Below, one piece after another: positions 1,472 to 18,441 of a stretch of DNA of 45,473 nucleotides. The DNA comes from Abditibacteriaceae bacterium (lineage in GTDB: Bacteria > Armatimonadota > Abditibacteriia > Abditibacteriales > Abditibacteriaceae). The first letter of the stretch is position 1. Each line of letters begins with the position of its first letter. The notes beneath the pieces were generated by a model. It searched no databases. It was not told where the DNA came from and was given only the letters and a program-made list of their open reading frames with translations. The stretch spans positions 1 through 45,473 of the forward strand of contig JANPJS010000258.1 of assembly GCA_031425655.1 (NCBI GenBank), given 5' to 3'. Position numbers and translations under genes: made by a program.

Positions 1472-1480
1472 GATATTTCC

Positions 1481-2542
1481 TTAAATGGTTCTATTGACCA
1501 AACTGACCAGCATTGCCGCGACTTTATCGGGCGGCAAAATGTGAATAGCCGCGCCTAATTTAATGGCTTCGCCGGGCATTCCATGCACCACTGAACTGGC
1601 CGCGTCCTGCGCGATGGTGACCGCGCCTTTGTCTTTCATCAGCTTCAATTCATCGGCGCCGTCGCGGCCCATGCCGGTTAATAAAACTCCGGCGGCGTTG
1701 GCTCCGAAACCCTGCGCAACCGAGCGAAATAAATACGAAACCGCAGGCCGTAAATTGCTTTCGGCAGGAGCATCGCTGAGCGCGATGCGCCGTGCGCTCA
1801 CGCCCATGTGATGATTATCGGGCGCTAAATAAGCGTGCCCGGTCAGCAATATCTCGCCTTGCACAGCGATGCGAACCGGAAACTTCGTCACCTGCGTCAG
1901 CCACGAAACGAGGCCCGGCAGAAATCCCGCCGCAATGTGTTGCACGATAAGAATCGGCGCCGCGAAATCCTGAGGCAAACCCGACAGAATCGTTTCCAAA
2001 ACCGGCGGCCCGCCCGTTGACACGCCGATAGCGACGACTTCGATTTTGTGGCGCGGCGCCAAAGCCGGTAGCACCGCCGGCAACGCAGCACTCACCTCAC
2101 TTTTTACAGCTTCGGCAGGCCGTCGCCAGCGCCGCACAACTTTCACTTCGGCCATCGCTTTGACGGTTTGCACCAGTCTGCGGGCCAGCGCATCGGAATC
2201 TTCATGGCCGGGGCCGCGTGGTTTCTCGACGGCGGCGAGCGCCCCGGCTTCCAATGCCTGAAAAGTCAGCGCCACTTCCTTCGCCGCGTAAGCCGCGCTC
2301 ACCATGACAATCGGGACGGGCTGCGGCGATTCCATGATGCGCCGCGTTGCTTCCAAGCCGTCCATCTTCGGCATATCAACGTCCATCGTGATGACATCGG
2401 GTTTGTGCCGCGCTAAAAAAGCCAACGCTTCCTCGCCGTTGCCCGCCGTTCCCATGATGCTCAGCGCCGGATCGGAGCCAAGAATGTGTTCCAGCAATTT
2501 GCGCGCGACGGGCGAATCTTCGACGATGAGGACGTTAATCAT
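1481..2542 (-). CDS. cheB: Chemotaxis protein-glutamate methylesterase/deamidase CheB
   Basis: REC domain followed by methylesterase with GVSTGG, VQHI and TGMGRDG catalytic motifs; GMPGEA near the C-terminus. Confidence 0.96.
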   Translation of the reverse strand: MINVLIVEDSPVARKLLEHILGSDPALSIMGTAGNGEEALAFLARHKPDVITMDVDMPKMDGLEATRRIMESPQPVPIVMVSAAYAAKEVALTFQALEAGALAAVEKPRGPGHEDSDALARRLVQTVKAMAEVKVVRRWRRPAEAVKSEVSAALPAVLPALAPRHKIEVVAIGVSTGGPPVLETILSGLPQDFAAPILIVQHIAAGFLPGLVSWLTQVTKFPVRIAVQGEILLTGHAYLAPDNHHMGVSARRIALSDAPAESNLRPAVSYLFRSVAQGFGANAAGVLLTGMGRDGADELKLMKDKGAVTIAQDAASSVVHGMPGEAIKLGAAIHILPPDKVAAMLVSLVNRTI

Positions 2543-2543
2543 A

Positions 2544-4895: not shown

Positions 4896-4900
4896 CGCGG

Positions 4901-5010
4901 AACCCCGATTAAAATCGGGGGCTACCTTTGCAAAGTCCGCCTTCGCGGACTAAATTCCGAGTCCGAAAAAGCGAAATTCGTAATCATAAACCCTGATTTC
5001 AATCGGGGCA
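4901..5010. repeat. REP-like palindrome cluster inside the che operon
   Basis: accccgattaaaatcgggg, agtccgccttcgcggact and accctgatttcaatcgggg; related units occur at 21874, 24001, 41125 and 45406. Confidence 0.8.
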
Positions 5011-5013
5011 AAA

Positions 5014-6651
5014 TCACACCTTAAATTGCTCGACTTGCTCTTTGAGGCGCTGCCCCAGTTCGGTCAGGCTACGCGCGGCTTCTTCCAATTGGCGGGCGCC
5101 TTCCACGTTTTGCGTGCTGGCCTGCTTGATGCTTTCCATCGCCTGCGCCACTTGATCCATGCCGACTAATTGCTGCTGGCTCGATGCCGCGATTTGGCTG
5201 GCCGCCTGCGCCGCGTCGTCCACGCTTTCCGATAAGGCCAAAATCGCTTCGCCGGCTTGCTCGGCTTGTGTCACGCCAATTTCGACGGCTTTACTGCCCT
5301 GCTCCGTCGCCAAAACCGCCGCGCTGGTGGCCTTTTGGATTTCGGTGAGAATAGCGCGCACTTGCATCGTGGCCTGTTTCGATTGATCGGACAGACTTTT
5401 CACTTCCTGCGCCACGACCGCGAAACCTTTGCCCTGATCGCCGGCTTTGGCCGCTTCGATGGCCGCGTTGACCGCCAACAGATTCGACTGCTGCGCCAAA
5501 TCGTCCACCGAGGCGATGATTTGCCCGATGGCCTGACTTTGCTCGGCCAAGCGCACCATGCCTTCGGCGATGGCTTCCATTTGCTCGCGGATGCGCTGCA
5601 TTCCCGCGCCGGTTTCTTCGGTGGATTTGCGCCCGCTTTGCGCCACATTGACCGCGTGCTGCGCGGTTTCGGCGACTTGGCGCGCTTTCTGGCTGGCCAA
5701 CTGCGAGGTTTGGCGGATTTCTTCGACGGTCGTGGTCGTTTCGGCAACGGCGGTCGCGGTTTGAGTCGAACTGGCGGCAAGTTCGGTGGTCGAAGCCGAT
5801 ATTTCGCTGGACGAGGTCGTCAACACGTTGACGCCTTCGGTGATATTGCGATTGACCTGTTGCAGGTTCGCCACCATTTTGCTGAACGAGCGGGCCAGTT
5901 TCCCCACTTCATCGCGCCGCGCGTCGGCGGCGACTTGGACGGTCAAATCGCCGTTAGCGATGCGCTCGGCGGCGCCGGCCATTGCTTTCAGCGGTCGGGC
6001 GATGATGAGGCCCATAATGATGGTCATCAGAGTGCCCAAAAGCAATGCGACGGCACCGGCTGTCATGAATTGCTGAATGGCCCTGTGCCCGTTCTCTTCG
6101 GCGTTACGAATGGAATTTTTCGCGTTACTATCGGCTTGAGCGGCCAGATTTTCGGCGATATTGCTCATATCCTCGACACGCTGCGCTTGAATACCTAAAA
6201 GCAAGGCTCTGGCCTGCGGCATTTTACCTGCGTAGATTAATGGAATGATTTGCAGCTCGCGCGTTTTCTTATGCGTGTCCTGAATCGTGCGCAACTGCGC
6301 CAACGGCCCCGCGAAATTCTGATCCACCTTGTTGCGGTCGAGAAGACTATCGGTGACCTTTTCCTGCAAAGCGGTCTTCGCTTTCAGGTTGCTGTCCCAC
6401 TTTTGCTGCTCGGCCCGCGTGGTGGCCGACAGCATCGCCAGCACTCCGGCGCGCAAAGCGACGTGTTGCTGGCGCAACTCCCATAAGTCGGTGACGTTGG
6501 CGAACTCCATCTGGTAAAGCCGCTTTTGCGAGGCTTGCATCGTGTTGATGCGAACGTAAGCCAGAGCAATGACGGACGCTAAAAACGCCATCATCACGAT
6601 GAAGCCGAGCGCCAGTTTGGTCGCCGTCGAAAAATTCAAGAACCACTTCAT
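5014..6651 (-). CDS. Methyl-accepting chemotaxis protein (2 TM, four-helix sensor, HAMP), WspA-like
   Basis: Two hydrophobic segments, HAMP (RRDEVGKLA), signalling tip QSNLLAVNAAIEAAKAGDQGKGFAVVAQEV. Start taken at ATG 6651 (MKWFLN) after GGAGCAGG; the longer ORF overlaps cheW. Confidence 0.93.
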   Translation of the reverse strand: MKWFLNFSTATKLALGFIVMMAFLASVIALAYVRINTMQASQKRLYQMEFANVTDLWELRQQHVALRAGVLAMLSATTRAEQQKWDSNLKAKTALQEKVTDSLLDRNKVDQNFAGPLAQLRTIQDTHKKTRELQIIPLIYAGKMPQARALLLGIQAQRVEDMSNIAENLAAQADSNAKNSIRNAEENGHRAIQQFMTAGAVALLLGTLMTIIMGLIIARPLKAMAGAAERIANGDLTVQVAADARRDEVGKLARSFSKMVANLQQVNRNITEGVNVLTTSSSEISASTTELAASSTQTATAVAETTTTVEEIRQTSQLASQKARQVAETAQHAVNVAQSGRKSTEETGAGMQRIREQMEAIAEGMVRLAEQSQAIGQIIASVDDLAQQSNLLAVNAAIEAAKAGDQGKGFAVVAQEVKSLSDQSKQATMQVRAILTEIQKATSAAVLATEQGSKAVEIGVTQAEQAGEAILALSESVDDAAQAASQIAASSQQQLVGMDQVAQAMESIKQASTQNVEGARQLEEAARSLTELGQRLKEQVEQFKV

Positions 6652-6661
6652 ACCTGCTCCT

Positions 6662-7189
6662 TTAGGCCGCGACTTCTTCGTGAACGATGATTTTTTCGTC
6701 CGCCAAAATGCGCGCGACATCAAGCACAATGGTGCGTTCGCCGGTGACGCCGCGCAAATATTCAGCGCGAATGCCGGTTAATGTCGGCAGCGACGATTGC
6801 AATTCCTTCAACGGCAGCAAGCGCACGCCCAAAATGGTATCGGCCAAGATGCCCAATTCCATGCGTCCGGCGCGCACGATAATGACTTTATTGAGATCGC
6901 TGAAGCCCTTTTCCGGGAGTTCAAAAAACCGCTTGATGTCAATGACCGTAAGAATCTGCCCGCGCACGTTGACGATACCGAGAACGAAAGACGGCGTGCA
7001 GGGCACAAAAGTCAGGTCTTTGAGGGGATAAACTTCGCGCACCAGCACCGATTCGACGGCGTATTTTTCGTGCGCGAGCAGAAATTCGACGACTTCGAGA
7101 TCATCTTCACCCGACCGCGCCGTTTGCAGCTCGCGCGCTAAAGTTTCGGCTCTGGCAGCGAAAATGGCGCGCTTTGCATCGTCGCTCAT
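6662..7189 (-). CDS. cheW: CheW coupling protein (WspD-like)
   Basis: VEFLLAHEKYAVE, VPCTPSFVLGIVNVRGQILTVIDI. Confidence 0.93.
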   Translation of the reverse strand: MSDDAKRAIFAARAETLARELQTARSGEDDLEVVEFLLAHEKYAVESVLVREVYPLKDLTFVPCTPSFVLGIVNVRGQILTVIDIKRFFELPEKGFSDLNKVIIVRAGRMELGILADTILGVRLLPLKELQSSLPTLTGIRAEYLRGVTGERTIVLDVARILADEKIIVHEEVAA

Positions 7190-7653
7190 AGCGCGTTCTC
7201 CGGTTCAAGGGCAATTTGCAGCGTGTGTTCTTCGGAAAGCGAAAGTGCGGCCTCTAAATCTTGAATTAGCACGATGCCTGCTTTGCCTTTGATAGCCCCG
7301 CTGACGTATTCGAGGCCGGAAATGAGGTCTTCGGACGGCAAAACTTCGCTCGCCGCACACGCGATAACGCCGCCGACTTCGTCCACAACGAGAGCCACTT
7401 TGCGCCGCGCAGTGCGCGCGATGACGAAGAGATCGGAGAGTTCTAAATCGCGCTCCGGCAGGTTATTGCGCCGGCGCAGGCTGATAACGGGGATGATTTC
7501 GCCCTGCACGTTTATTACGCCGAGAACGATATTAGGCGCTTTGGGAAGAGAAGTGATGAGGGCCGCGCGAACCACACGCTCCACCAAGTCCAGAGCCAGC
7601 GCGTAATGCTGCTCATCGAGAGCGAATTCGACGAAACGGAGCGGCTGATTCAT
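7186..7653 (-). CDS. cheW: CheW coupling protein (WspB-like)
   Basis: LPKAPNIVLGVINVQGEIIPV, ALVVDEV; ATGA overlap with the next cheW. Confidence 0.92.
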   Translation of the reverse strand: MNQPLRFVEFALDEQHYALALDLVERVVRAALITSLPKAPNIVLGVINVQGEIIPVISLRRRNNLPERDLELSDLFVIARTARRKVALVVDEVGGVIACAASEVLPSEDLISGLEYVSGAIKGKAGIVLIQDLEAALSLSEEHTLQIALEPENAL

Positions 7654-7753: not shown

Positions 7754-7819
7754 CAGGGCAATCGCATGCGAAATGATTAAGCACAAGAAGCAGGTGTCAT
7801 TCCGAGCGCGTTTGCCCTG
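7754..7819. mobile_element. Internally deleted MITE-like element of the CAGGGCAATCGCATG family
   Basis: Ends cagggcaatcgcatg ... cgcgtttgccctg; flanks tcacccggc / ccacccggc (8/9 direct repeat); contains a gtgtcattccgagc fragment. Confidence 0.65.
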
Positions 7820-7936
7820 CCACCCGGCCATAAATGACCGGGCTGAAATACAAAGCCTCTTCGAGGCTCACCAGAAGCCTCGCCTCAGCCCCGGAGGGGC
7901 TTCGTGTTTTAGCCCGGTCATTTATGGCCGGGTGGC
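7819..7936. repeat. REP-doublet hairpin overlapping the P450 stop codon
   Basis: gccacccggccataaatgaccgggct ... agcccggtcatttatggccgggtggc is a perfect inverted pair with inner palindromes. Confidence 0.85.
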
Positions 7937-9178
7937 TGTGGCAAGGCTGCGGCAAGGCGCCGGATTCCAAGCCACGGGAATGCTTTCAAAGCCGCGAAAA
8001 ACGATGCCGTCGCGGCTTGCCGGTTCGGCGCAGAGCAAATGTAAATCGGGGAAGCGTTGTAAAAGCGAAGTTAGCGCGATTTGTCCGCCGGCGCGAGCTA
8101 AAATTGCGCCCAAACAAAAATGAATGCCGACGCCGAAAGCCATGTGCATTTTCGGATTGCGCTTTAAATCGAGCCGGTCGGGATGCGCGAAAACGTGCGG
8201 ATCGTGGTTGGCGGCGCCTAAAACCATCGTGACTTTGGCGCCTTGAAGAATGGTTTTGCCGCCGATGCACACGTCTTCCAATGCAACGCGCGCCGTCATT
8301 TGCACCGGGCTGTCGTAGCGCAGCAATTCTTCGACGGCAGCCGGCATGAGATGCAAGTGATCTTTGAGATATTGCAACTGCGCGGGATGGCGCAGCAGCG
8401 CTACGACGCTGTTGCCGATGAGGTCAACTGTTGTGCCCTGCCCGGCGCCCAATAAAAGGATGCAGGTGGCCACGATTTCTTCTTCGTCCAGGTGCCCGCC
8501 CTGCTCTTCGGCCTCGCTCAAACGGCTGATTAAATCGTCTTGCGGCTGGCGGCGGCGTTCTTCGAGAATTTCCAGAAAGTAGTCGTGCAGCGCCACGGTC
8601 GCGCGGCTGGCTTCTTCATAAACCTGCGGCGTGCGATTTTGGTCAATAGCCGCCGAAAGTGCGTTCGACCACGCGCGAAACTGCGTTTGATCTTCGGCGC
8701 GCACACCGAGAAGCTCGGCGATGATGACGAGCGGGAGCGGAAATGCGTAATCCGCAATAACATCCATCGAGCCTTTGTCCTGCGCCGCGTCGAGCAAACT
8801 CTCGGCAATCGTGGCAATGCGCGGACGAAGCGCCGAAACCACGCTGGGCGTGAAGGCTTTGCTGACTAAAGTGCGCAACCGCGTGTGATCGGGCGGATCG
8901 CGGTAAAGCATCCATTTGCCGGCCATTTCGTAAAAAGCACGATGTGTTTCGGGCAGAGTGTGAGCGGCGGCGGGCGCGTTAACGCGATGCAATTCGCGTC
9001 CGAATCGAGGGTCTTTCAGGGTGGCGACGACATCGGCGTGCCGAAAAAGATACCAGAAGCCGGGTCTTTCAGGCGTTGGTTCCACCGCGCAATGCACGGG
9101 ATCGTGATTGCGGTAGAGATGATAAAACGGATAAGGGTCGCTGAGAAACCCCGAACGCAGCGGATTGAACGGCTCCAT
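7922..9178 (-). CDS. Cytochrome P450
   Basis: DPYPFY, DPPDHTRLR, EELLR (ExxR), heme signature FGVGIHFCLG. Start placed at ATG 9178 (MEPFNP); the exact start is uncertain. Confidence 0.93.
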   Translation of the reverse strand: MEPFNPLRSGFLSDPYPFYHLYRNHDPVHCAVEPTPERPGFWYLFRHADVVATLKDPRFGRELHRVNAPAAAHTLPETHRAFYEMAGKWMLYRDPPDHTRLRTLVSKAFTPSVVSALRPRIATIAESLLDAAQDKGSMDVIADYAFPLPLVIIAELLGVRAEDQTQFRAWSNALSAAIDQNRTPQVYEEASRATVALHDYFLEILEERRRQPQDDLISRLSEAEEQGGHLDEEEIVATCILLLGAGQGTTVDLIGNSVVALLRHPAQLQYLKDHLHLMPAAVEELLRYDSPVQMTARVALEDVCIGGKTILQGAKVTMVLGAANHDPHVFAHPDRLDLKRNPKMHMAFGVGIHFCLGAILARAGGQIALTSLLQRFPDLHLLCAEPASRDGIVFRGFESIPVAWNPAPCRSLATATRP

Positions 9179-9433: not shown

Positions 9434-9669
9434 ACTCAGCCTTACGCGGTGCCGCCGTTTTTAAACGGGAAGGCGGGAAGAACGGGAAGGCGGGAAGAGA
9501 TTTGAGTGCTTTAGGCGGACGGGAAGCGATTTGGAGGCTTGGCTAACGAGCGGTGTGCTATCAGGACAGTGTTCAGGCCGTTTTTTCACGTTGTCAACCC
9601 TAAAAGATTTCCCGTCTTCCCGTTCTTTCCGTCTTCCCGTTAAAAACCACGGCACCGCATAAGGTGAGT
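9434..9669. mobile_element. Composite MITE-like element (ACTCACCTTACGCGGTG-type ends) carrying a tandem 9-mer hairpin
   Basis: Left actcagccttacgcggtgccgccgtttttaa is the near reverse complement of right ttaaaaaccacggcaccgcataaggtgagt; inner arms (cgggaagN)n and (Ncttcccg)n. Confidence 0.7.
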
Positions 9670-9685
9670 CAATCAGGAGAATAAC

Positions 9686-10516
9686 GTGAAAATTGCTGTT
9701 CAATTAGGCTTGCTGCCGGGAAATACCAATCTCGAAAAAGCGAAATGGGCGCGGGATCACGGCGTCGAGGGCATCGAATTGGGTGTTTGGGGCGGCGGAT
9801 TGCCTAAAATGCGCCGCGACGCCGAAGAAATCAACGGTTTGGTGCCGATTTCCAGCGTTTGCGGCAACGCCGACGCCGAAGGCAACACCAGTTTCGAGTT
9901 TCTCAGCCCCGATCCGAAAAAGCGCCGCGCCAGCATTGACGGAGCCAAAGCGATTCTTGAGTTTTGCGGCGAAGTCGGCGCCGCCGGACAAATCGTGCCG
10001 CCGATTTTCGGCGCGCCGCAAGTGCCGGATTTATCGCCCTTCAAAACGCCTTTGGAAATCGAAGAAGAACTGATAATCGCCGCCTGCCGCGAAATCGGCC
10101 CGCACGCGCAATCGCACAAAACGCTGTTTCTTTTGGAGCCGCTCAATCGCTACGAACAGCATTATTTACGCAAGCAAAGCGACGGCGTGCGCGTGATAAA
10201 AGCCTCCGGCGCGCCCGGCATCAAGGTGCTGGCCGACCTGTTTCATATGCACATCGAAGAAACCGACAGCCCGGCAGCCTTGCGCGCGGCAGGCAAACAC
10301 GTCGGACATTTGCATTTGGCCGACAACACGCGCATGGAACCGGGCACCGGCGACATTGACTTCGTGGCGGCCTTCAAAGCGTTGAAAGACATTGGCTTTA
10401 CGGGTTTCATGGCTTACGAATGCGGCATTTCAGGCGACACGCTGCGCAAAAAAGCCGCGAACCTGTCGAAGAGCCTCGACTTCGTGCGTAACGCGATTGA
10501 AAAGGCGAGCATCTGA
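9686..10516 (+). CDS. Sugar-phosphate isomerase/epimerase (xylose-isomerase-like TIM barrel, tagatose/psicose 3-epimerase-like)
   Basis: EPLNRYE, DLFHMHIEE, HLHLADNTR, PGTGDIDF and AYE motifs; AGGAG RBS before GTG. Confidence 0.9.
   Translation: MKIAVQLGLLPGNTNLEKAKWARDHGVEGIELGVWGGGLPKMRRDAEEINGLVPISSVCGNADAEGNTSFEFLSPDPKKRRASIDGAKAILEFCGEVGAAGQIVPPIFGAPQVPDLSPFKTPLEIEEELIIAACREIGPHAQSHKTLFLLEPLNRYEQHYLRKQSDGVRVIKASGAPGIKVLADLFHMHIEETDSPAALRAAGKHVGHLHLADNTRMEPGTGDIDFVAAFKALKDIGFTGFMAYECGISGDTLRKKAANLSKSLDFVRNAIEKASI
10391..10516 (+). repeat. Left copy of a ~120 bp direct repeat (3' end of the isomerase gene)
   Basis: Matches 16165-16284; the first 20 bp ggctttacgggtttcatggc are identical. 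Confidence 0.9.
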
Positions 10517-10563
10517 CGTAATGCCAAGAGGGTTATAATTAGCGTAAATAACATAATGGAGAG

Positions 10564-13185
10564 GTGGGCAAATTGAAGTTTGGCTATGAAACCATTATCT
10601 GGGGTCGAGAAATTGACGACCTTGATACTGTGCTTGACATTATCGCGGGCGCTGGATATCAGGGTGTGGAATTCTCTCAGTGGCCGGGACGCTTGCCGCC
10701 CATACAAGACCTGCTCAAGATGCTGGAAGATCGCCAATTGGCGTTGATCGGTTTTTCAGGCGGCACCTTGTATGAGCGCATAAAGTATTGCGGCAATTAT
10801 CGCCCCGAACATCTGATCGTCTTTGATTGGAGTGAACTCGCTGAGAAAGCCACAGCAGACGGGTTCAAATTTGCGTTGCACCCACATCTCCATAAACCAA
10901 AGCACCGGATTGAGGAAGTTTTTGATTTGCTCAAAAAGCACGACAAGCTTCTCTTTCTGCCGGATACTGCTCTGCTAACTATCGCAGGTGACGACCCGGT
11001 TGAGGCGATTCAGAGGGCATTCCAATTGGGTAAAGGAAGGCTGGTTGGTGTCCACTTGAAAGATTGGTCGCCGGAATATGGGCATGCCGCGCACCGCTAT
11101 GCCTACGGCTTCACGGAACTCGGCACCGGCATCATTGAGTTGGAAGCCGTGCTTCGTGAGTTGCAGCAGTCTCATTTCACCGGTTGGATGATTGTGGAGC
11201 AAGACAACACGCGCAAAGATATTCCAACTTCTGTTTCCGAATCTGCACAGTGGCTTGCTAATAAGGGTTTTTCCGTTGTGCCTCGCAAAGCGTCAGCCCT
11301 TTCGTCCCCCAAACCCCGAATCCCCGCGAAGCGGCCAACCACCTTTTCCGCAGATGACGAAGCACGCTTTTTAAAGGCCATATCGCGTGCCAGCACTATG
11401 GAACTGAACGCCTGTTACGACCAAATTGCTGCATCTTTCAGCGAACTCGTGCCTGACAGCCTCGTGATGGTAATGATGTGTAATCCGATAAACAATGTTG
11501 TCAGCCTACTTTCTTTGGCAAACGGGATTTCCACTCAATATGATGAATACTCCCACGCACAACGGACTGCCAACCTGCTCACTGACGGGCACTATGCCGC
11601 AGCATTGGGAAAACTCACTCTGGAATTCGAGAAAACCTTGAGTGGTGTTGCCGTCGAACGGCAAACTACGACATCATTTGACCTGACCACACCTCATCCC
11701 GGCGCAGAATATGGATATCCTTCTGCAAACTTGGGTTATTCAAAGTTGTGCGAGCAGTTAGGCCTGACCCGCATGGTGGGAATTCCAGTGTTGGGTATTT
11801 CCAATCCACGCCACGCGCGCTTAATCGTTAATATTTTTTCCCCGGCCAATGATCGCTTGGCTCATCAGGATGAGCTTGAATATCTCTTCTATCTGAGCCA
11901 ATATGCGGGTATTGCAGCCGATTCGGCTCTGGATGAGATATGTTCTTTTGCTGCCGCCAGTGTCAACATCTTAGCCGGGCCTAGCACGACCACGAATGGG
12001 TTTTTGGAAAAAATCCGAGACCTGATCTTGGAACTCGTGGAATGTGAGGCCATTTCCATCTTTTTGATAAACGACATAGACACCAAACTTGAATTGGCCA
12101 CTTCAACAACGAATGCTGACTGGCGTGTGCCTGAGAATGAGCAATTCTATGCAAAGGGCGAGGGGCTGACGGGCCAGGTTTGGGACCGCAGAGAAGCACT
12201 GCTTACGACTGATACGAATCAAGAGCCGGGGCATTCGGGTAAGAGTGCGGAACGCGTCATAACTGAGCGGAAGGCTTGCCTGATGGCGCCGTTAGTCAAC
12301 TCCAGAAACGAGGTCGTCGGAGTCGTGCGCTGCATGAATAAACATGAGTCTCGCCCGCAAGACCTCAGGATGTTCACCAACGATGACGTAGCAATTTTGG
12401 AAGCGATTGGCCAAGCCGCCGTTCCTCACCTGCAAATCCTCCTGAGCGAGGAGTGGCGTGCCCGCGCTCTGGGTAGGATGATTCATGAATTTAAAACGCC
12501 ATTGGTTGCCATTCGCGGCGCCGCTGACTTGATGGATGCTGAATTCGAGAAGCGGCGCACTTCCGCCGTCGAATTTTTCGATCACGACTACCTGGAAGAC
12601 ATCTGGGCTTGGAGCGATATTATGCGCCGGTTGCTTGGTAATGCTGACGTTTTTCGTTATCCATCGCTGGAGATCCCGCTTCAGCCACAACCCACGTTGT
12701 TATTGAAACACGTTGTTGCGCCGGCGGTTAACCAAGTGCAGATTTTACTGCGCAATCGTGGTTTCTCTCAGAACAGCATTCGCTATGGAAGCTTCACAGT
12801 GATCCCCGATTTGTGGATTGACCGAAGCCAATTTCAGCAGGTGATTTTCAACCTGTTGTCTAATGCAATTAAGTATTGTTATCATGATGCCAAATCCTTT
12901 CAGGTGGCAATTGTGGGAGAGATAGAGGCCGGAGATTTCGTAGTGCGATTTCGAGATTGGGGGCCGGGAATCAGTCGAGAAATGCGTGAAGCCATTTTTC
13001 GGGAGGGCATCCGAGATACAAACGCCATAAAGGACAACGTCGCGGGACAGGGACTTGGCCTTTGGGTGGTGCGGAAGATTGTGGAGGCTCATGGCGGTGA
13101 AGTGCTCGTGACGAAGTTGCGTCAGCCGACGGAAATTTCCATTTACTTGCCTCACTCGCTGGCCTCCCGTCCACCTCGCTCGTGA
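10564..13185 (+). CDS. Soluble sensor histidine kinase: TIM barrel (IolE/AP_endonuc_2-like), GAF-like, GAF, HisKA, HATPase
   Basis: N-terminal GYQGVE, LHPH, PDTAL, VHLKD, ELGTG, GWMIVEQD; GAF with GEGLTGQV, CLMAPL, VVGVVRCMNK, FTNDD; H-box HEFKTPL, NLLSNAIKY, DWGPGI, GQGLGL; no clear TM segment. Confidence 0.9.
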   Translation: MGKLKFGYETIIWGREIDDLDTVLDIIAGAGYQGVEFSQWPGRLPPIQDLLKMLEDRQLALIGFSGGTLYERIKYCGNYRPEHLIVFDWSELAEKATADGFKFALHPHLHKPKHRIEEVFDLLKKHDKLLFLPDTALLTIAGDDPVEAIQRAFQLGKGRLVGVHLKDWSPEYGHAAHRYAYGFTELGTGIIELEAVLRELQQSHFTGWMIVEQDNTRKDIPTSVSESAQWLANKGFSVVPRKASALSSPKPRIPAKRPTTFSADDEARFLKAISRASTMELNACYDQIAASFSELVPDSLVMVMMCNPINNVVSLLSLANGISTQYDEYSHAQRTANLLTDGHYAAALGKLTLEFEKTLSGVAVERQTTTSFDLTTPHPGAEYGYPSANLGYSKLCEQLGLTRMVGIPVLGISNPRHARLIVNIFSPANDRLAHQDELEYLFYLSQYAGIAADSALDEICSFAAASVNILAGPSTTTNGFLEKIRDLILELVECEAISIFLINDIDTKLELATSTTNADWRVPENEQFYAKGEGLTGQVWDRREALLTTDTNQEPGHSGKSAERVITERKACLMAPLVNSRNEVVGVVRCMNKHESRPQDLRMFTNDDVAILEAIGQAAVPHLQILLSEEWRARALGRMIHEFKTPLVAIRGAADLMDAEFEKRRTSAVEFFDHDYLEDIWAWSDIMRRLLGNADVFRYPSLEIPLQPQPTLLLKHVVAPAVNQVQILLRNRGFSQNSIRYGSFTVIPDLWIDRSQFQQVIFNLLSNAIKYCYHDAKSFQVAIVGEIEAGDFVVRFRDWGPGISREMREAIFREGIRDTNAIKDNVAGQGLGLWVVRKIVEAHGGEVLVTKLRQPTEISIYLPHSLASRPPRS

Positions 13186-13221
13186 CGCCGGGCAAAAACC
13201 ACAGCATTAAGGAGAGAGCCA

Positions 13222-13668
13222 ATGGATACAAAGGAACCAGTGCAACGCCTTGTCTTACTGGTAGATGATGAGACGATGCCATCTGATCTTTACGTGCGAG
13301 CGTTAGAGCGAGTCGGATTCAAAGTTGAGCAGCGATTCGATCCTGATGAAGCGCTCGCCTTCGTGGAAAAGGAAGGACAGAATATCAAGGCTATCATCCT
13401 CGATGTGATGATGCCTCCGGGTAGCTATGGCAACAAGCGCACTGAGGACGGTTTGACGACTGGAGTTCTGCTTTACGCCGACCTGCAACAGCGATGCCCA
13501 TATGTGCCAATTTTTGTGACGACCAATACGGCAAACCACGCAACTCTTCAGCAATTTCCGCAGGGGCCACTGCTCCGTATTATTCAAAAGATAGATTATC
13601 CGCCTCGCGCTTTGATTAAACTCGTCCAAGAAATGATTGACAAGGAAGATGCTAACGATGTCGAATGA
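13222..13668 (+). CDS. Single-domain response regulator (receiver only)
   Basis: LLVDDE, phosphoacceptor ILDVMMP, VTT, QK; no output domain; AAGGAG RBS. Confidence 0.9.
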   Translation: MDTKEPVQRLVLLVDDETMPSDLYVRALERVGFKVEQRFDPDEALAFVEKEGQNIKAIILDVMMPPGSYGNKRTEDGLTTGVLLYADLQQRCPYVPIFVTTNTANHATLQQFPQGPLLRIIQKIDYPPRALIKLVQEMIDKEDANDVE

Positions 13669-15637
13669 TTTTGGAACTTCAAAACATGAACCGCAATTGT
13701 CAGGCGAAGATCGCTTCTGGCAGATGGTCAACGAACCACAATTGCTGTTGGATATGAAAGGCTTGGAAAATGCGTTAGGTGAACTTCAAGAACAGCTTGA
13801 TGAAAGTCAAGTGGAATTGCTTGAAGAAATTGGCGGACATTTATGGCGACAGGTCATCATGGGTCTTCGTCAGAGAATTAGTTTGGTTGAGGCCGCGAAC
13901 GCTACGGATGATGAAACGAGAAATTTTAAGGTCGGGCAACTCGCCGACACACTTAAGAACGAATACCCAGTATGGTTAATTCGTGTCGCCGCCAGCACCA
14001 CTACCCCGCCCAATGTCGCGGAGGCGGCGAGGGAGGTGTTGCACGAGTTCGGCTTAACCGCCGAAGAGTTGGCAGAGGAAGCAGAGGGCGAGGCGGTGCT
14101 GGCAGGCGTGGGAGAACCGTCGTCGCCCATCCTTGTGGTGGAAGAGCAACCACAGGAATACATCGTCAGCGTGCCGAGAGGATTACAACTGGCTGCGGCG
14201 GGAGAGGCGCGCCATTCTCTGCGTGACGTGCAACTGCGGAAAGACATTCACATCCTCCGCTCGGCAGGTGAAGACGGCAATCTGGCGCTAATGACGGCGC
14301 GGGAGGCCGCACACCTCAAAGCCACCATGCCGGATTTGTTGGTGGAACCCAACGTGCTCTACAAGCTGATCGGGCATCCGCTGCTCGATAATTTCAAGTC
14401 ATTCGATGCACCGTCCGTATGGGGGCGCAAAACGGTCACTGTGCGTGTAGTGGATATCAACAATAATCAACGGCCCGTTCCCGACGTAACTGTTTATTTG
14501 ATCGTTGATCCCGTCAAGCGTTCGGGTTACAAAGGCATAACGAATAAACAAGGGGAATGCCGCCTGAGCATCCACGCCAGCATTCACGCCGCGCACAAGC
14601 TATGCGACCTTCTACTGCTGCCGAAAGCGGGTTATTGGAATCGCTCACTCAATCAAATTGCAATCACTGATGAGTTCGAGACGTTTGTTCGTCCGCTGTT
14701 TGATGCGCCCGGAGGGGCTTACGATTGGGGGCACCAGTGCTGCGGGGGGCGGGGCGGATTATCCGACGGCGCCGAGATCAAAATCGGCATCATTGATTCG
14801 GGCGTGTGCCGTGACCATCCTTGGCTGGCTCCGGCCAAGGGGCACAGTTTTGTTGATGGCCCGAAAAAATATCCGTGGCATGAGGACGATCTGGGGCATG
14901 GCACGCACGTTGCGGGCGTCATCGCGGCTCGTCTTGCCAGCGCGGGCGGTTCAGGATGTGTAGGATACGTGCCGCAGGCGCAGATTCATTCTTATCGCGT
15001 AGCCAAGGATAAGAATGAAGTATCCCTACTGGACATTAGCGATGCGATTGACCGTGCCGTGACGGACGGCTGCGACCTCATCAATCTGAGCCTTGGCGAC
15101 AATGAGTATTCGGATTATCTACACGGCAGCATTGAGGCGGCTACGGAAAATGGCGTGCTGTGCATCGCCGCCACCGGCAACGATGGTGGCCCAGTGCTCT
15201 ATCCGGCGGCTTATTCCCGTGTCGTGGGGATTAGCGCGTTCGGCAAGTATCGTAGTTATCCAGACGATTCGCTGCATTGCGCCAATGAGCCTCACCAAGG
15301 CAATCGTCCAACTGCGCAGCGTCCCGACGGCGAGTATTACGTGGCGAAATTCTCCAACTTCGGCGATGAGGTAAATTTTTGTGCTCCCGGCGTGGCGATT
15401 ACGTCCACTGTGCCGGTTGACGGTTTCAGTGCTTGGGACGGCACCAGCATGGCTTGTCCGCAAGTCACTGGGATTGCTGCTCTGGCTTTAGCCTTGAATC
15501 CAAGCATTTTTCTTGCTCCACGGAATCCAAGGCGTGTGACACAGCTCAAGCAGGTTCTGGGAAGAACCGCGCAGCCGTTGGGCTTTGGCGCGTCTTACGA
15601 GGGAGCAGGTTGTTTAGATGTGGGACGGCTTCCATAG
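13658..15637 (+). CDS. S8 subtilisin-like serine peptidase with N-terminal helical region, propeptide and beta-sandwich insert
   Basis: Triad IGIIDSG, HGTHVAG, GTSMACP; LINLSLG; AATGND. Start taken at ATG 13658, overlapping the receiver gene; no signal peptide. Confidence 0.92.
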   Translation: MSNDFGTSKHEPQLSGEDRFWQMVNEPQLLLDMKGLENALGELQEQLDESQVELLEEIGGHLWRQVIMGLRQRISLVEAANATDDETRNFKVGQLADTLKNEYPVWLIRVAASTTTPPNVAEAAREVLHEFGLTAEELAEEAEGEAVLAGVGEPSSPILVVEEQPQEYIVSVPRGLQLAAAGEARHSLRDVQLRKDIHILRSAGEDGNLALMTAREAAHLKATMPDLLVEPNVLYKLIGHPLLDNFKSFDAPSVWGRKTVTVRVVDINNNQRPVPDVTVYLIVDPVKRSGYKGITNKQGECRLSIHASIHAAHKLCDLLLLPKAGYWNRSLNQIAITDEFETFVRPLFDAPGGAYDWGHQCCGGRGGLSDGAEIKIGIIDSGVCRDHPWLAPAKGHSFVDGPKKYPWHEDDLGHGTHVAGVIAARLASAGGSGCVGYVPQAQIHSYRVAKDKNEVSLLDISDAIDRAVTDGCDLINLSLGDNEYSDYLHGSIEAATENGVLCIAATGNDGGPVLYPAAYSRVVGISAFGKYRSYPDDSLHCANEPHQGNRPTAQRPDGEYYVAKFSNFGDEVNFCAPGVAITSTVPVDGFSAWDGTSMACPQVTGIAALALALNPSIFLAPRNPRRVTQLKQVLGRTAQPLGFGASYEGAGCLDVGRLP

Positions 15638-15740
15638 ATGCCATAAAGAAGGCCGGGCTGTTCCGAAAGGCCTTACTATGGTAAAAGTAGAATCGTAGGT
15701 GCGAAGGGAAGCGCACCCTCGCTCGAAGTAAGGTGTTACA

Positions 15741-15980
15741 ATGTCAATTCTGACCCGTATGTTCAAACGCCATCCTGCCCAGCAATATATTGTCTGGCGG
15801 AAGTCGGGTAACGTGTCCGTGAGGGGCGAACTCTCGCATTACTCAGGGGTTCGCATTCTCAATGAGGCCAATCCACGCCGAGCGCTGGTCGAAATGTCTG
15901 ACGACGTGCGAGATCGGATTGCCCACGAACATCCTGAATTGTCTATTGAGCCGAACGCCCTCTATAAATTGCAGACGTGA
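15741..15980 (+). CDS. Small protein resembling the subtilase propeptide (I9-like inhibitor)
   Basis: Ungapped 41-residue alignment to the upstream protease pro-region (14 identities, ending IEPNALYKL vs VEPNVLYKL) plus a shared YIV strand; TAAGGTG RBS. Confidence 0.75.
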   Translation: MSILTRMFKRHPAQQYIVWRKSGNVSVRGELSHYSGVRILNEANPRRALVEMSDDVRDRIAHEHPELSIEPNALYKLQT

Positions 15981-16017
15981 GAACGCACAGACAAGCCATT
16001 CGCTGTTGCTGCGCGCG

Positions 16018-16073
16018 GATGTAAAAAGCCAGAACGTGCCTCAAAATCAAGGCACGTTCTGGCTTTTTACATC
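16018..16073. terminator. Long perfect hairpin, probable intrinsic terminator of the islet operon
   Basis: gatgtaaaaagccagaacgtgcct-caaaatca-aggcacgttctggctttttacatc. Confidence 0.75.
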
Positions 16074-16164
16074 TATGACGCGTGTTAGAAGGAATCCTTC
16101 GGCTCCGTGGTTTGCGATGAAGTAAAAATGGTATGCTGGGGCTTGACCTATTGAAGTGAATCGA

Positions 16165-16284
16165 ATCGGCTTTACGGGTTTCATGGCCTACGAATGCGGC
16201 ATTTCCGGCGACACACCACGCAAAAAAGCCGCAAACCTCGCCAAAAGCCTCGACTTCGTGCGCGCCGCGATTTCGAAAGCGTAA
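16165..16284 (+). pseudogene. Displaced 3' fragment of the isomerase gene (right direct repeat)
   Basis: Translates IGFTGFMAYECGISGDTPRKKAANLAKSLDFVRAAISKA*, against IGFTGFMAYECGISGDTLRKKAANLSKSLDFVRNAIEKASI* in the intact gene. Confidence 0.88.
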
Positions 16285-16288
16285 ATTG

Positions 16289-16354
16289 AACCGCCAAGAC
16301 GCCAAGAACGCCAAGAACTTAATTGCTCTTGGCGTTCTTGGCGTCTTGGCGGTT
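16289..16354. repeat. Hairpin repeat built from tandem cgccaaga units
   Basis: aaccgccaagacgccaagaacgccaaga ... tcttggcgttcttggcgtcttggcggtt perfect inverted pair. Confidence 0.85.
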
Positions 16355-16359
16355 AATAT

Positions 16360-18441
16360 TTAGCTTTTCACTTTAGCGACCAAAAGCTTCGTGTTGCTTT
16401 CACCGACGTGCACGATGATGAGACGGCCCCGGCGCGCGACTTCGACAGTCTGACCTTCGATTTTGTCTTCGAGCGCGGCTTGGCCTTGCGCGATTTGCGT
16501 CAGTGCGCCGCCGGCTGCGCCGCGCGATAAAGTGCCTTTGAGCGTGGTCGCTTCGGCTTTGAGCATGAGCGTCACGGCGTTGCGCTTCGGGTCGCCGAAG
16601 ACGAGATTCAATTTCTGATCGGCGGCCAAAGCCGGCATTTTGAAACGCACCGTGCCATCGCCCCAGAACGGGCCTTTGTGCCACATGGTTTTGCTGGTGG
16701 TGTCGGTGGTGCCTACGAACTGCACACCCGGATCGGCCAGCGGCGGCAGCGGCATCCAAGCGCCTTCAGGTGTGCTCCAACCGCCCATTGTTAACGGCTG
16801 CGGGCCGGTGGAATACAAATCGGGGACGCTGGCCCACGTCGGGCGAGGATGCGGGAATTCGACGGCGAACGCGGTGATTTTCGGTGCAGTTTTGCTTTTG
16901 GCATCGCCTTGCGCGAAAAAGCCGGGGCGGCCGCTGTCAATGTCGTCGTCGAAGGCGTCCAGCAGGCGCACGCCGTCGGCTTTGGCGCTCAGATAGCCAC
17001 GGTCGCAGGCAAATTCCCACTGCGTGGTTTTGCCGTCGAAACGGGCGCCGGTGCGCGCTTCATCCAACACTTCGGTTTTGACGCCCATGGTTTTCACCAA
17101 TTGCACCCGTCCGGCATAAGGCGAGGCCGATTTCGAGCCGGCCACGCGCAGCAGATACGTTCCTTTGCCGGCTTGATGGTGCAAAACCACACCGGCAGCG
17201 GCGCTTTCGGGCAGTTCGATGTCGGCGGCGGCGATGTAATTTTCCCAATCGGCTTCGCCCGTGACTGCAAAAGCGCCCTGCGCGCCTTGCGATGTCATGT
17301 AACCAGCTTGAAGATTAGATGCCAGAGCGCCCGTTACCGTCCGCCAGCGGCCTGGAACTGTCACGCGAAAATCGTCGGCGATGTCGTTGATCGAACGCAC
17401 AGTCACGTCGTCGAAGACCGCTGAGGCCTCGATGCTGGGGTTTTCGGTATAAAGCCCGACTTGGCCGCGTCCGAAGAGGCCGGTGCGCGAACGCAAGACT
17501 TCAGTGTCGTCAATTGCGGCGCGCATCCAGCCGTTGGACGCCGAAAGGCGAATGCGATACCACTGATTCTGGTCGTAAGCGACAGGCGCTTCGGCGAGGA
17601 TGCGCGGCTGTCCGTCTATCATGCCGCGCAGTTGCACCGGGCCTTCCTCGCTCCAATGCAATAGCAAATAATTCTTGTCGTCCTGCACATAAACCGCGAT
17701 GCCGATAGCCGTGGCGCCTTCGGGTTTGACCGAAACCTCTACGGCGTAATCGTCCCAGAAAGCCTTGCCCGCCACCGCCAGATTAAGGCCTTTGGCGCCG
17801 GCTTTGAAGACGAACGGGTTGGCACTCTGCGCGACTTGCGCGGCGGCGTTTTCGGCCAGCCCGCTGGTGCTCCAACTGCCGATTAAATTGCTCCATACGG
17901 TTTCTTCGATCTTGACCGAGGCGATAGGAATGCCTTTGCGCGGATCGGCCTGGGTATCGGCCACAACGACATCGTTGGCCACGCGCATGAAGTCGTCGTC
18001 TAAAGTCACATCGCCGCTGGGCTGCATTTTCGGCGTGTTGGCGGCGCCGCGAAAGCCGATTTTGCCTTCTTTCCAGGTTTCGTCGTCGGCCTCGAAAAGC
18101 ACGCGTTTTTCGGCGATGATGCGCCAGCGTGCCCCGCGCCTTTGAATCACAACCGCGCCCGGCGCGATGGCTTTGCCATACGAGGCGAGGCGCGTGGCGA
18201 TTTTGCCTTTGGATAGGCCAAGTTCGATGCCGGCAGGCGTGAATTTCAAGCGATAACCGTCGCCGTTTTCCTGCTCGCACAGCGACCAGTCAACGGGCAA
18301 GCTGGCCAGTTTCGCGGTCACGTCGAAACCGCCTTCTTCGGCGGGGTCTTCGAGATAAGTAAAGCCGGGCAGTGCGGCGTGTGCGGCGTTCGACAGGGCA
18401 AGACAGGGCAGTAAGATCGCCCCAAGAAGTAGCTTTTTCAT
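16360..18441 (-). CDS. Secreted hypothetical protein with repeated ConA/LamG (DUF1080-like) beta-sandwich domains
   Basis: Signal peptide MKKLLLGAILLPCLALSNAAHA; repeated WDDY/WENY strands, GQVGLY, FDDVTV, GRPGFF. Confidence 0.75.
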   Translation of the reverse strand: MKKLLLGAILLPCLALSNAAHAALPGFTYLEDPAEEGGFDVTAKLASLPVDWSLCEQENGDGYRLKFTPAGIELGLSKGKIATRLASYGKAIAPGAVVIQRRGARWRIIAEKRVLFEADDETWKEGKIGFRGAANTPKMQPSGDVTLDDDFMRVANDVVVADTQADPRKGIPIASVKIEETVWSNLIGSWSTSGLAENAAAQVAQSANPFVFKAGAKGLNLAVAGKAFWDDYAVEVSVKPEGATAIGIAVYVQDDKNYLLLHWSEEGPVQLRGMIDGQPRILAEAPVAYDQNQWYRIRLSASNGWMRAAIDDTEVLRSRTGLFGRGQVGLYTENPSIEASAVFDDVTVRSINDIADDFRVTVPGRWRTVTGALASNLQAGYMTSQGAQGAFAVTGEADWENYIAAADIELPESAAAGVVLHHQAGKGTYLLRVAGSKSASPYAGRVQLVKTMGVKTEVLDEARTGARFDGKTTQWEFACDRGYLSAKADGVRLLDAFDDDIDSGRPGFFAQGDAKSKTAPKITAFAVEFPHPRPTWASVPDLYSTGPQPLTMGGWSTPEGAWMPLPPLADPGVQFVGTTDTTSKTMWHKGPFWGDGTVRFKMPALAADQKLNLVFGDPKRNAVTLMLKAEATTLKGTLSRGAAGGALTQIAQGQAALEDKIEGQTVEVARRGRLIIVHVGESNTKLLVAKVKS

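Follow-up and report, generated by a model that had tools for sequence, protein, structure and literature searches.

What is an enzyme barrel doing at the front of a histidine kinase, and does it still work as an enzyme? The usual inputs of such kinases are PAS, GAF, Cache or membrane domains. Enzyme-fold sensors or "trigger enzymes" do exist, for example the N-terminal domain of KdpD and the RsbQ/RsbP pair, and these resemble the present case in general outline, in that an enzyme fold supplies a signalling protein with its input. To our knowledge, none of them uses a xylose-isomerase-like barrel. The kinase discussed here is encoded on a contig of 45,473 nucleotides from an Abditibacteriaceae bacterium (JANPJS010000258.1, hereafter the window; Table 1). 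The original prediction saw in it a catalytically weakened enzyme fold, retained to bind a sugar, an inosose or a metal.

Table 1. Features of the kinase locus (window positions)
Feature	Position	Strand	Details and basis
Host PF01261 sugar isomerase/epimerase	9686..10516	+	Pfam; insertion site of the cassette
Left copy of 117-nt direct repeat	10391..10507	+	In-frame 3' end of upstream isomerase gene
Histidine kinase, barrel-GAF-GAF-HisKA-HATPase, soluble	10564..13185	+	873 codons, one open frame; 870 aa from TTG start
Shortened IolE/3-ketoglycoside-eliminase-type (beta/alpha)8 barrel	10573..11268	+	Residues 4-235; structure model, fold and profile matches
Family-specific beta7-alpha7 lid loop	11080..11112	+	Residues 173-183, consensus GRSSHRYARGF
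Degenerate GAF1	11350..11928	+	About residues 263-455; structure model and profile alignment
GAF2	11929..12447	+	About residues 456-628; Pfam
DHp with phospho-acceptor His641 (12484) and catalytic ATPase domain	12448..13161	+	N, G1, F and G2 boxes intact
Single-domain receiver	13222..13668	+	Pfam above cut-off; D15/D16, D61, K123
S8 subtilase	13637..15637	+	Pfam; cargo of same cassette
79-aa ORF	15741..15980	+	31% over 72 aa to residues 173-244 of S8 protein
Right repeat copy	16165..16284	+	85% identical; orphan isomerase 3' end with own stop; far cassette edge

Architecture of the kinase

The barrel motifs GYQGVE (residues 31-36), LHPH (105-108), DTAL (134-137), VHLKD (163-167), ELGTG (185-189) and GWMIVEQD (207-214) all lie in the single 873-codon frame, and they are indeed in frame with GAF and kinase domains, as first proposed. 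Pfam profiles match AP_endonuc_2 (PF01261) at residues 87-233 (E 1.7e-18, 67.7 bits against a cut-off of 31.1), GAF_2 at 476-619, HisKA at 634-663 (weakly, below cut-off) and HATPase_c at 753-864 (E 5e-18). They give no match over GAF1, which is nevertheless aligned to GAF2 by profile comparison (probability 93.5, E 2.3e-7). The whole-protein structure model reaches a pLDDT of 92.7 and a pTM of 0.88, and the top 19-residue hydropathy window, at 1.63, indicates no clear membrane helix. The TTG at 10573 is probably the real start, since the database protein P0002 has 870 aa and homologues begin there.

The H-box helix presents the phospho-acceptor as H641-E-x-x-x-P. Among 96 aligned kinases, His641 is kept in 94, N767 in all, and the N, G1, F and G2 box residues in 93-96. 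Structure comparison places the kinase core on HK853 (Z 21.4, rmsd 7.2, 217 aligned); the fold search with the full-length model probed the protein outside its GAF part. The best score against the named NCBIfam kinase families is 71 bits for a cut-off of 342, and none comes near its cut-off. By domains and key residues the protein appears to be an intact HisKA-type two-component sensor, with phosphotransfer predicted. It has the DHp histidine, the N/G1/F/G2 boxes, the continuous GAF-to-DHp helix and the adjacent receiver of class I HisKA kinases (HK853-type core, cytoplasmic GAFs), but differs from them in its input, an enzyme-derived metal barrel at the N-terminus. Promoter and terminator scans at the locus stayed at chance level, and no RNA data set was listed as containing the sequence.

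A 6,728-nt Logan contig spans 9621-16348 with zero differences, although the run may be the source of the same DNA, so that the match is not independent. Given this spanning contig and over 100 further sequences of the same architecture, the fusion is not an assembly artefact. Nor is it the singleton that would have undermined the initial claim: it is found in 105 further sequences.

The barrel and its active site

In the AlphaFold model (pLDDT 96.8) the (beta/alpha)8 barrel is complete and its helices 3 and 4 are short; by fold and above-cut-off score it belongs to PF01261. It was suspected to be shorter than the stand-alone enzymes, and this is so: its length is about 230 aa, that of free relatives (alignment A7) about 271 and that of IolE 3cny 301. 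The segments that follow beta3 and beta4 in the free relatives are missing. The kinase is intact, and the barrel at its N-terminus is a genuine, conserved module, most likely the input, as had been supposed.

The best fold matches are IolE and keto-sugar enzymes. IolE (TIGR04379; 3cny) comes top (Z 24.2, rmsd 2.6, 230 aligned), with Art22 and Brucella IolE within 1 Z, and 3cny also ranks first by profile among solved structures (E 2.7e-21). However, the barrel scores only 48.6 bits against the TIGR04379 equivalog cut-off of 290, reads HPH for HHH and EQD for EAEQD, and has some 35 residues deleted around alpha3-beta4. No iol genes occur among the scanned neighbours of the kinase.

The eliminases AtOGE (PDB 8bvk; PMC10628242) and LgdB1-type (PMC10066097) share with the kinase barrel the PF01261 fold, the beta5 His/beta6 Asp/beta7 His/beta8 Glu set and the HxH base. 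In AtOGE, H132/D163/H189/E233 bind Mn, the H134A mutant is inactive and H189A is left with less than 0.1% activity (PMC10628242). Alignment to AtOGE predicts H106 (10879), D134 (10963), H164 (11053) and E212 (11197) as metal ligands, and puts H108 (10885) at the position of the catalytic base, AtOGE H134; all five are present in the window barrel. None of the 133 fused barrels varies at H106, D134 or H164; the exact tetrad is found in 127, H108 in 120, and tetrad plus H108 in 116. The non-metal pocket residues T10, E36, Q39, H108, H137, K166 and W168 are kept in 120-132 of the 133, and D167 is also kept across the family; some members lack H108 or E212. Judged by these alignments, the barrel holds the predicted metal site and catalytic base of 3-ketoglycoside beta-eliminases. 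The retained catalytic histidine is equally compatible with an active enzyme, a point against the receptor reading.

Unlike AtOGE and LgdB1, the kinase barrel is about 40 residues shorter, is fused to or co-encoded with a GAF-GAF-kinase, and has the GRSSHRYARGF lid. No conserved oxidoreductase, as expected of the glycoside 3-dehydrogenase partner of eliminases, adjoins it in the family loci read. Of seven loci scanned, five have a free relative next to levoglucosan dehydrogenase, and the free relatives have HPH, PDTAH and W..VE.D in common with the kinase barrel (profile probability 99.9). Their LgdB1 label comes from neighbours and length and not from comparison with a characterised protein, and since they were chosen by motif scan, "nearest" is biased and their position in the tree is not firm.

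The DTAL variant

Catalytic weakening had been deduced from DTAL standing in place of the usual DTGH-type motif, an argument that is not supported. Full-length sequences retain the histidine in 102 of 106 cases (the window kinase has L137, at 10972), the active eliminase AtOGE has a tryptophan at the aligned position, and the metal tetrad and base are intact. DTAL is thus no proof of inactivity. H137L occurs together with Y85I and E/D87F in a five-member subclade (support 98), in which the window copy is 57% identical to the nearest member; the window barrel leaves the family consensus at 83, 85, 87, 137 and 174. Since DTAL is joined to two more pocket changes, this copy, but not the family, may be respecified or inactive. 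The subclade pocket (H137L, Y85I, E87F) is likely more hydrophobic, so its ligand may differ or turnover be lost. D167 or E212 is altered in two of the five members; none of the five key residues is lost from the window protein. That the subclade holds five divergent sequences argues for continued selection.

Distribution of the family

With that of the window counted, 106 of the 155 sequences analysed join the barrel to a kinase ATPase, and these come from several phyla: the barrel-kinase family is real and widespread but rare in bacteria. Mean pairwise identity is 0.40 for the barrel, 0.44 for the ATPase, 0.29 for GAF2 and 0.205 for GAF1, and columns conserved at 90% or more number 28/229 in the barrel, 21/120 in the ATPase and 2/193 in GAF1. 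The barrel tree agrees with the GAF2-kinase tree (rho 0.64; the highest of 500 label shuffles is 0.23), which speaks for long association only and not for co-evolution, since shared descent suffices. At some loci the barrel is a gene of its own, free-standing and directly 5' of a GAF-type gene (L068, L070, L073, L119). Stop and start codons overlap at two of these four loci; L068 and L119 also show the kinase. One protein, P0012, is a doubled form of 1742 aa; no longer fusions were found at 1468-4190 aa, weak evidence given that P0012 exists. The family kinase has no match in viral contigs, nor in plasmids at E 1e-30, and ESM Atlas returned generic GAF leads below 0.9 or nothing. The distribution is patchy and mobile, with GC below the flanks in 17 of 18 loci.

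No conserved sugar-pathway gene, such as metabolic sensors often have, lies beside the family in the loci read, and no conserved metal-homeostasis genes either, with one locus sitting among iron ABC genes. These neighbourhood counts omit truncated, broken or kinase-less copies (L008, L011, L062, L067, L074, L121) and contig-end loci (L059, L069, L070, L072, L073, L087, L125, L127), and enter L002-L004 once; the effector count given below also omits L063 and L120, with too little downstream DNA.

Genomic setting

An enzyme of the same superfamily does lie directly upstream, as initially remarked, but its value as a functional clue does not survive. Aligned to the kinase barrel it scores only 26 bits; in two relatives the gene after its orthologue encodes an oxidoreductase and not a kinase; and its duplicated 3' end brackets the low-GC cassette that carries the kinase. 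No third copy of the 117-nt repeat was found in the genome. On sequence grounds, the isomerase is the insertion site, and neither a partner of the kinase nor the source of its barrel. Tandem duplication from this gene is rejected, its sequence being remote from that of the barrel.

A receiver follows the kinase in all 25 assessable loci, and the lone domain of the window is likely the phosphoryl acceptor. The S8 subtilase is absent from every related locus read, and the 79-aa ORF behind it may possibly encode a free propeptide-like inhibitor. PADLOC 2.0 gives only partial ATPase and receiver matches (PDC-M43B, SduA N-terminus), which are weak for the kinase, and the downstream genes vary. The small ORFs ahead of HNH and metallo-beta-lactamase (MBL) genes did not align together as one family.

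Predicted coupling of barrel and kinase

In the complex model the two GAFs cap the active-site face of the barrel, with a score of 0.80 where the best of three controls gives 0.00. Runs share at least 80% of contacts, and partner pLDDT is at least 90. The score mark is reached by 116 of 157 solved pairs and 2 of 215 mismatched ones, counts that hold only roughly here; a pass is favoured because both pieces come from one natural chain and one shared alignment. Lid residues H177 and R178 are predicted to touch the GAF1-GAF2 helix (452-460) and the start of the His641 helix (606-663). Interface residues are better conserved than the rest on the GAF side (0.46 against 0.34, p 4e-4) and marginally so on the barrel side (0.58 against 0.51, p 0.05), while mutual-information covariation between barrel and GAFs was swamped by conserved columns and gave no informative signal. 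The aligned loop of AtOGE is poorly ordered in the crystal (PMC10628242).

We lean, with reserve, toward the barrel being a metal/keto-sugar receptor wired to a soluble kinase via the conserved lid loop, its ligand being predicted. A divalent metal would bind in the barrel, together with what is likely a small molecule of 3-keto-sugar or inosose-like type. Occupancy, with turnover slow or absent, would order or shift the lid; the shift would move the helix carrying His641 and so change autophosphorylation, and the phosphoryl group would pass to the lone receiver. As this has no DNA-binding domain, it would act via protein contact or a phosphorelay.

Alternative readings

The barrel could instead be an active eliminase or dehydratase whose turnover, or a product read by the GAF pockets, sets the kinase, so that flux is measured. 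The base and metal ligands held together in the 116 barrels, the kept K166, D167 and E36, the GAF pair adjoining the active site in the model and the existence of free-standing barrels all favour this, but the modelled GAFs cap the active site, GAF1 is poorly conserved, the post-beta3 and post-beta4 segments are gone and some members are without H108 or E212, and we consider it unlikely. That the barrel reads Mn, Fe or Co level (or oxidation) with no organic ligand would fit three metal ligands more strictly kept than the substrate-side residues; these too are kept, however, and conserved metal-homeostasis neighbours are lacking, which leaves the idea improbable. An equally slim chance attaches to the window barrel being a relic that no longer senses anything and serves only as a structural cap, for auto-inhibition or stability: the coordinated pocket changes of its subclade and the altered D167 or E212 point that way, the five key residues of the window protein and the ongoing selection suggested by its divergent relatives point the other. 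The PF01261 gene next door might suggest an assembly chimera or one-off fusion, but the other 105 sequences, the spanning contig and the remoteness of that enzyme have already refuted it, and its chance is negligible.

A further reading concerns ligand and output, and is compatible with the receptor wiring: a mobile defence-type cassette whose barrel detects an oxidised sugar or nucleotide arising from infection or damage, and whose receiver switches on an effector. In 8 of 23 loci, one of the first two genes behind the receiver encodes, in the same orientation, a nuclease, TIR or peptidase (HNH in L006, L064, L150; metallo-beta-lactamase fold in L009, L061, L119; REC-TIR in L058; S8 in the window), against 1 of 17 other kinases of the same genome. 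STAND or SEFIR genes occur near L058, L068 and L071, and the patchy spread, low GC and missing sugar genes agree. Yet 15 of the 23 loci have no effector-type gene, the Fisher p is 0.054 with a control from one genome that was PADLOC-scored only, the effectors vary by locus and may merely share insertion hot spots, and the PADLOC kinase matches are weak ATPase-domain ones. This conflict or stress role is possible but doubtful. Somewhat more doubtful is a fuller version, in which a mobile module with a metal-dependent eliminase barrel, face-down on the GAF pair, would detect or cleave such a compound and drive the kinase-receiver relay to interchangeable effectors (HNH, metallo-beta-lactamase nuclease, TIR NADase, subtilase). 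It would amount to a two-component immune sensor derived from a sugar-catabolic enzyme.

Implications

Among the openly accessible papers searched, we found no description of the barrel-kinase architecture, which supplementary tables of comparative-genomics studies could still contain; passages of PMC554113, PMC7159879 and bioRxiv 10.64898/2026.10.19.760177 proved unrelated to it. The automatic JGI name [quoted passage not shown] exists, so the domain pair has already been machine-annotated. Here more than 100 divergent proteins conserve the active site of an enzyme as a kinase input, and a concrete lever is predicted to link the lid loop to the phospho-His helix; the split forms and the pocket-altered subclade offer natural controls. 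If keto-sugars are the ligand, the family would be a receptor for intermediates of oxidation-elimination glycoside breakdown and might serve as a scaffold for biosensors. If the conflict reading is true, little-studied phyla (Armatimonadota, PVC, Acidobacteriota) would have yielded a danger signal and a sensor of a new type.

Architecture and distribution of the barrel-kinase

The kinase gene is a single open frame of 873 codons containing all the motifs quoted in the original prediction. Pfam finds AP_endonuc_2, GAF_2 and HATPase_c in the protein, with HisKA weakly, confirming that the barrel runs in frame into GAF and kinase domains. A second, degenerate GAF sits between the barrel and the recognised one (secondary structure; profile match to the other GAF, probability 93.5). 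The barrel model is a full (beta/alpha)8 fold with short helices 3 and 4 (pLDDT 96.8), and the full-length model reaches a pTM of 0.88. Positions 9621-16348 are covered with zero differences by a single 6,728-nt contig from sequencing run X1, possibly the source of the same DNA.

Nor is the fusion a singleton. The barrel query matched 675 of the 50%-identity representatives at E <=0.001 and 155 at E <=1e-30; the best 150 of these 155, plus matches from another search and the window protein, form the 155 sequences analysed. The barrel is joined to a kinase ATPase in 106 and stands alone in 22, while the 27 with a GAF and no ATPase are probably mostly fragments. Variants include P0012 (1742 aa), a tandem double barrel-GAF-GAF-kinase protein, and P0047 (1002 aa), which has two ATPase domains. 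At four loci (L068, L070, L073, L119) the barrel is its own gene immediately 5' of a GAF-type gene; kinase and receiver follow in L068 and L119, and the other two stop at contig edges. In the tree, the split barrels lie within the fused ones, a placement suggestive of fission. At L121, where a deep-branching short barrel ends a long frame, no kinase was seen.

Named hosts belong to Phycisphaerae, Planctomycetota, Verrucomicrobiota, Bryobacteraceae, Acidobacteria, Armatimonadota, KSB1 and Omnitrophota, and the family is rare. In scans that scored only 2-4 candidates in each genome, many of the genomes being incomplete, it turned up in none of 24 same-family genomes, in 1/40 relatives' genomes, in 9/401 of its own phylum (window genome included) and, outside it, in 2/401, 1/351, 2/351, 3/216 and 1/216, the seed genome counted in each. 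Automatic annotations merely name the two domains, kinase and sugar barrel; the architecture is thus a machine-annotated pair for which full-text literature searches gave no description.

The barrel and its predicted metal site

The top fold matches of the barrel are IolE (Z 24.2, rmsd 2.6, 230 aligned), Art22 and further keto-sugar enzymes. Its score for the IolE family is far below the cut-off, and the protein belongs to the HisKA kinases and the PF01261 superfamily, not to IolE. In the O-glycoside beta-eliminase AtOGE, Mn is bound by H132, D163, H189 and E233, and H134 is the essential base (excerpt of PMC10628242). In a weak, motif-anchored alignment (E 7e-4), these residues fall on window H106, D134, H164, E212 and H108, with Trp166 opposite L137; the resemblance to the eliminase site is one of residue pattern only. 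The exact predicted metal tetrad occurs in 127 of the 133 fused barrels, and together with H108 in 116. A levoglucosan dehydrogenase adjoins free relatives of the barrel, chosen by motif scan, in 5/7 loci scanned. Since the usual PF01261 protein (~275 aa) beside that enzyme is the 3-keto-levoglucosan eliminase LgdB1 (excerpt of PMC10066097), these relatives are presumably of LgdB1 type; in a profile alignment they have segments after beta1, beta3 and beta4 that are missing from the kinase barrel.

The DTAL motif had been taken as the mark of a weakened enzyme. The change is real locally: the window protein sits in a five-member branch (FastTree support 98) where H137 has become Leu or Ile and where Tyr85 and the acidic residue at 87 are lost as well, and L064 carries the same Leu on another branch. 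However, position 137 is His in 102/106 full-length proteins, so the conclusion was too wide.

Predicted wiring to the kinase

Conservation of the barrel is close to that of the ATPase domain and far above that of either GAF. The phospho-accepting His641 is retained in 94/96 and the ATP boxes are also retained. A hydrophobic window exceeds 1.9 in only 2/106 proteins, which points to a cytoplasmic location for the family. A complex of barrel and GAF pair, modelled with Mn, scored 0.80, while the best of three controls reached 0.00, with at least 80% of contacts agreeing between runs and a partner pLDDT of at least 90. This mark is reached by 116/157 solved and 2/215 mismatched pairs, counts roughly applicable here, where the partners are two pieces of one natural chain; the model supports the contact and does not show it. 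The modelled interface is the barrel's active-site face, and lid residues 175-178 contact 452-460 and 606-613. In the full-length model, residues 606-663 form a single helix passing through His641. Interface residues on the GAF side are more conserved than remaining GAF residues (p 4e-4), and the excess on the barrel side is marginal (p 0.05).

A probable mobile cassette

The kinase does lie directly behind an enzyme of the same superfamily, as first remarked, but this adjacency is best read as an insertion site, not as a functional clue. GC3 of the kinase, receiver, S8 peptidase and small ORF is 0.50-0.58, versus 0.64-0.71 in nine host genes; copies of the isomerase 3' end flank the cassette; an oxidoreductase follows the isomerase orthologue in two relatives; and the genome has 37 PF01261 matches. 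Long imperfect flanking repeats were also found in 3/25 related loci tested (see table). Those of the four cassettes are 117-290 nt long and 82-91% identical, three of them contain host-gene pieces (isomerase 3' end, GNAT-like gene 5' end, by eye, and part of a uracil-DNA glycosylase gene), and no integrase was recognised inside, which suggests that cassettes entered different genes by single crossover of small circles. Cassette GC is below that of the flanks in 17/18 loci, and the L122 pair looks like a very recent insertion. Matches of two window inverted repeats to other run X1 contigs suggest a repeated extragenic element. An Atlas search with the N-terminal 370 aa of the S8 subtilase gave no match; the 79-aa ORF possibly encodes a free propeptide-like inhibitor of this protease.

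Coordinates of the cassettes and of neighbouring features
Locus	Position	Feature	Remarks
Window	53-7653	Chemosensory-type operon, few kb upstream	Two CheW, MCP, CheA-receiver hybrid, CheB, receiver-SpoIIE phosphatase
Window	7808-7947	Long inverted repeat	Intergenic
Window	9440-9664	Long inverted repeat	Intergenic; matched by other run X1 contigs
Window	10391-10507 and 16165-16281	Direct repeat of isomerase 3' end, flanking cassette	117 nt, 85% identical
Window	10564-13185	Barrel-kinase gene	
Window	13637-15637	S8 subtilase	N-terminal 370 aa without assigned domain
Window	15741-15980	79-aa ORF after subtilase	Resembles subtilase residues 173-244
Window	16276-16367	Long inverted repeat	Intergenic; matched by other run X1 contigs
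L058	4761-6076	Kinase, receiver, then receiver fused to Cap12/Pycsar-type TIR domain (REC-TIR)	STAND NTPase gene converges on REC-TIR gene
L061	250-411/9836-9998	Imperfect direct repeats flanking cassette	
L064	103-238/4818-4953	Imperfect direct repeats flanking cassette	
L065	551-840/7309-7597	Imperfect direct repeats flanking cassette	
L068	6654-10988	FIST-FIST_C-GAF-HATPase kinase, two genes after receiver of split cassette	SEFIR-WD40 gene upstream
L121	1004-6959	Short barrel ending long frame	After WD40-containing ORF, one TGA between
L122	6070-9334	Kinase-receiver pair between ABC transporter ATPase and permease genes	GC 0.33; region 0.65

Output and possible function

A receiver gene comes after the kinase in 25/25 loci where the end of the kinase is complete and DNA beyond it is available, recognised in L010 by motif only and in L058, L061, L064, L150 and L151 only by a purpose-built receiver HMM. 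It is on the opposite strand in L063 and carries extra sequence in L126, a locus with its barrel on a separate contig. None of the receivers of these 25 loci has a recognised DNA-binding domain. No conserved sugar gene was found near the barrel-kinase in the loci read, and no link between the kinase and the chemosensory-type operon emerged.

A role of the cassette in conflict is possible, if doubtful; this is a proposal on ligand and output that overlaps with every reading of the barrel. A nuclease, REC-TIR or peptidase comes after the receiver in 8/23 loci versus 1/17 control kinases, but with p 0.054 and with controls all from the window genome, scored by non-identical criteria (weak HD, receiver and cysteine-desulfurase matches set aside), this excess is a hint, not a result. 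The L058 REC-TIR is a candidate phosphorylation-gated NADase. As for the barrel itself, an active trigger enzyme is unlikely, and we give still less credence to a pure metal sensor or, equally, to a dead cap in the five-member subclade of the window protein.

We somewhat favour a receptor. The barrel, holding its predicted metal, would bind a keto-sugar-like metabolite and be capped by the GAF pair; its lid loop would work as a lever against the helix that runs to His641, and the output of the barrel-kinase would be the lone receiver.
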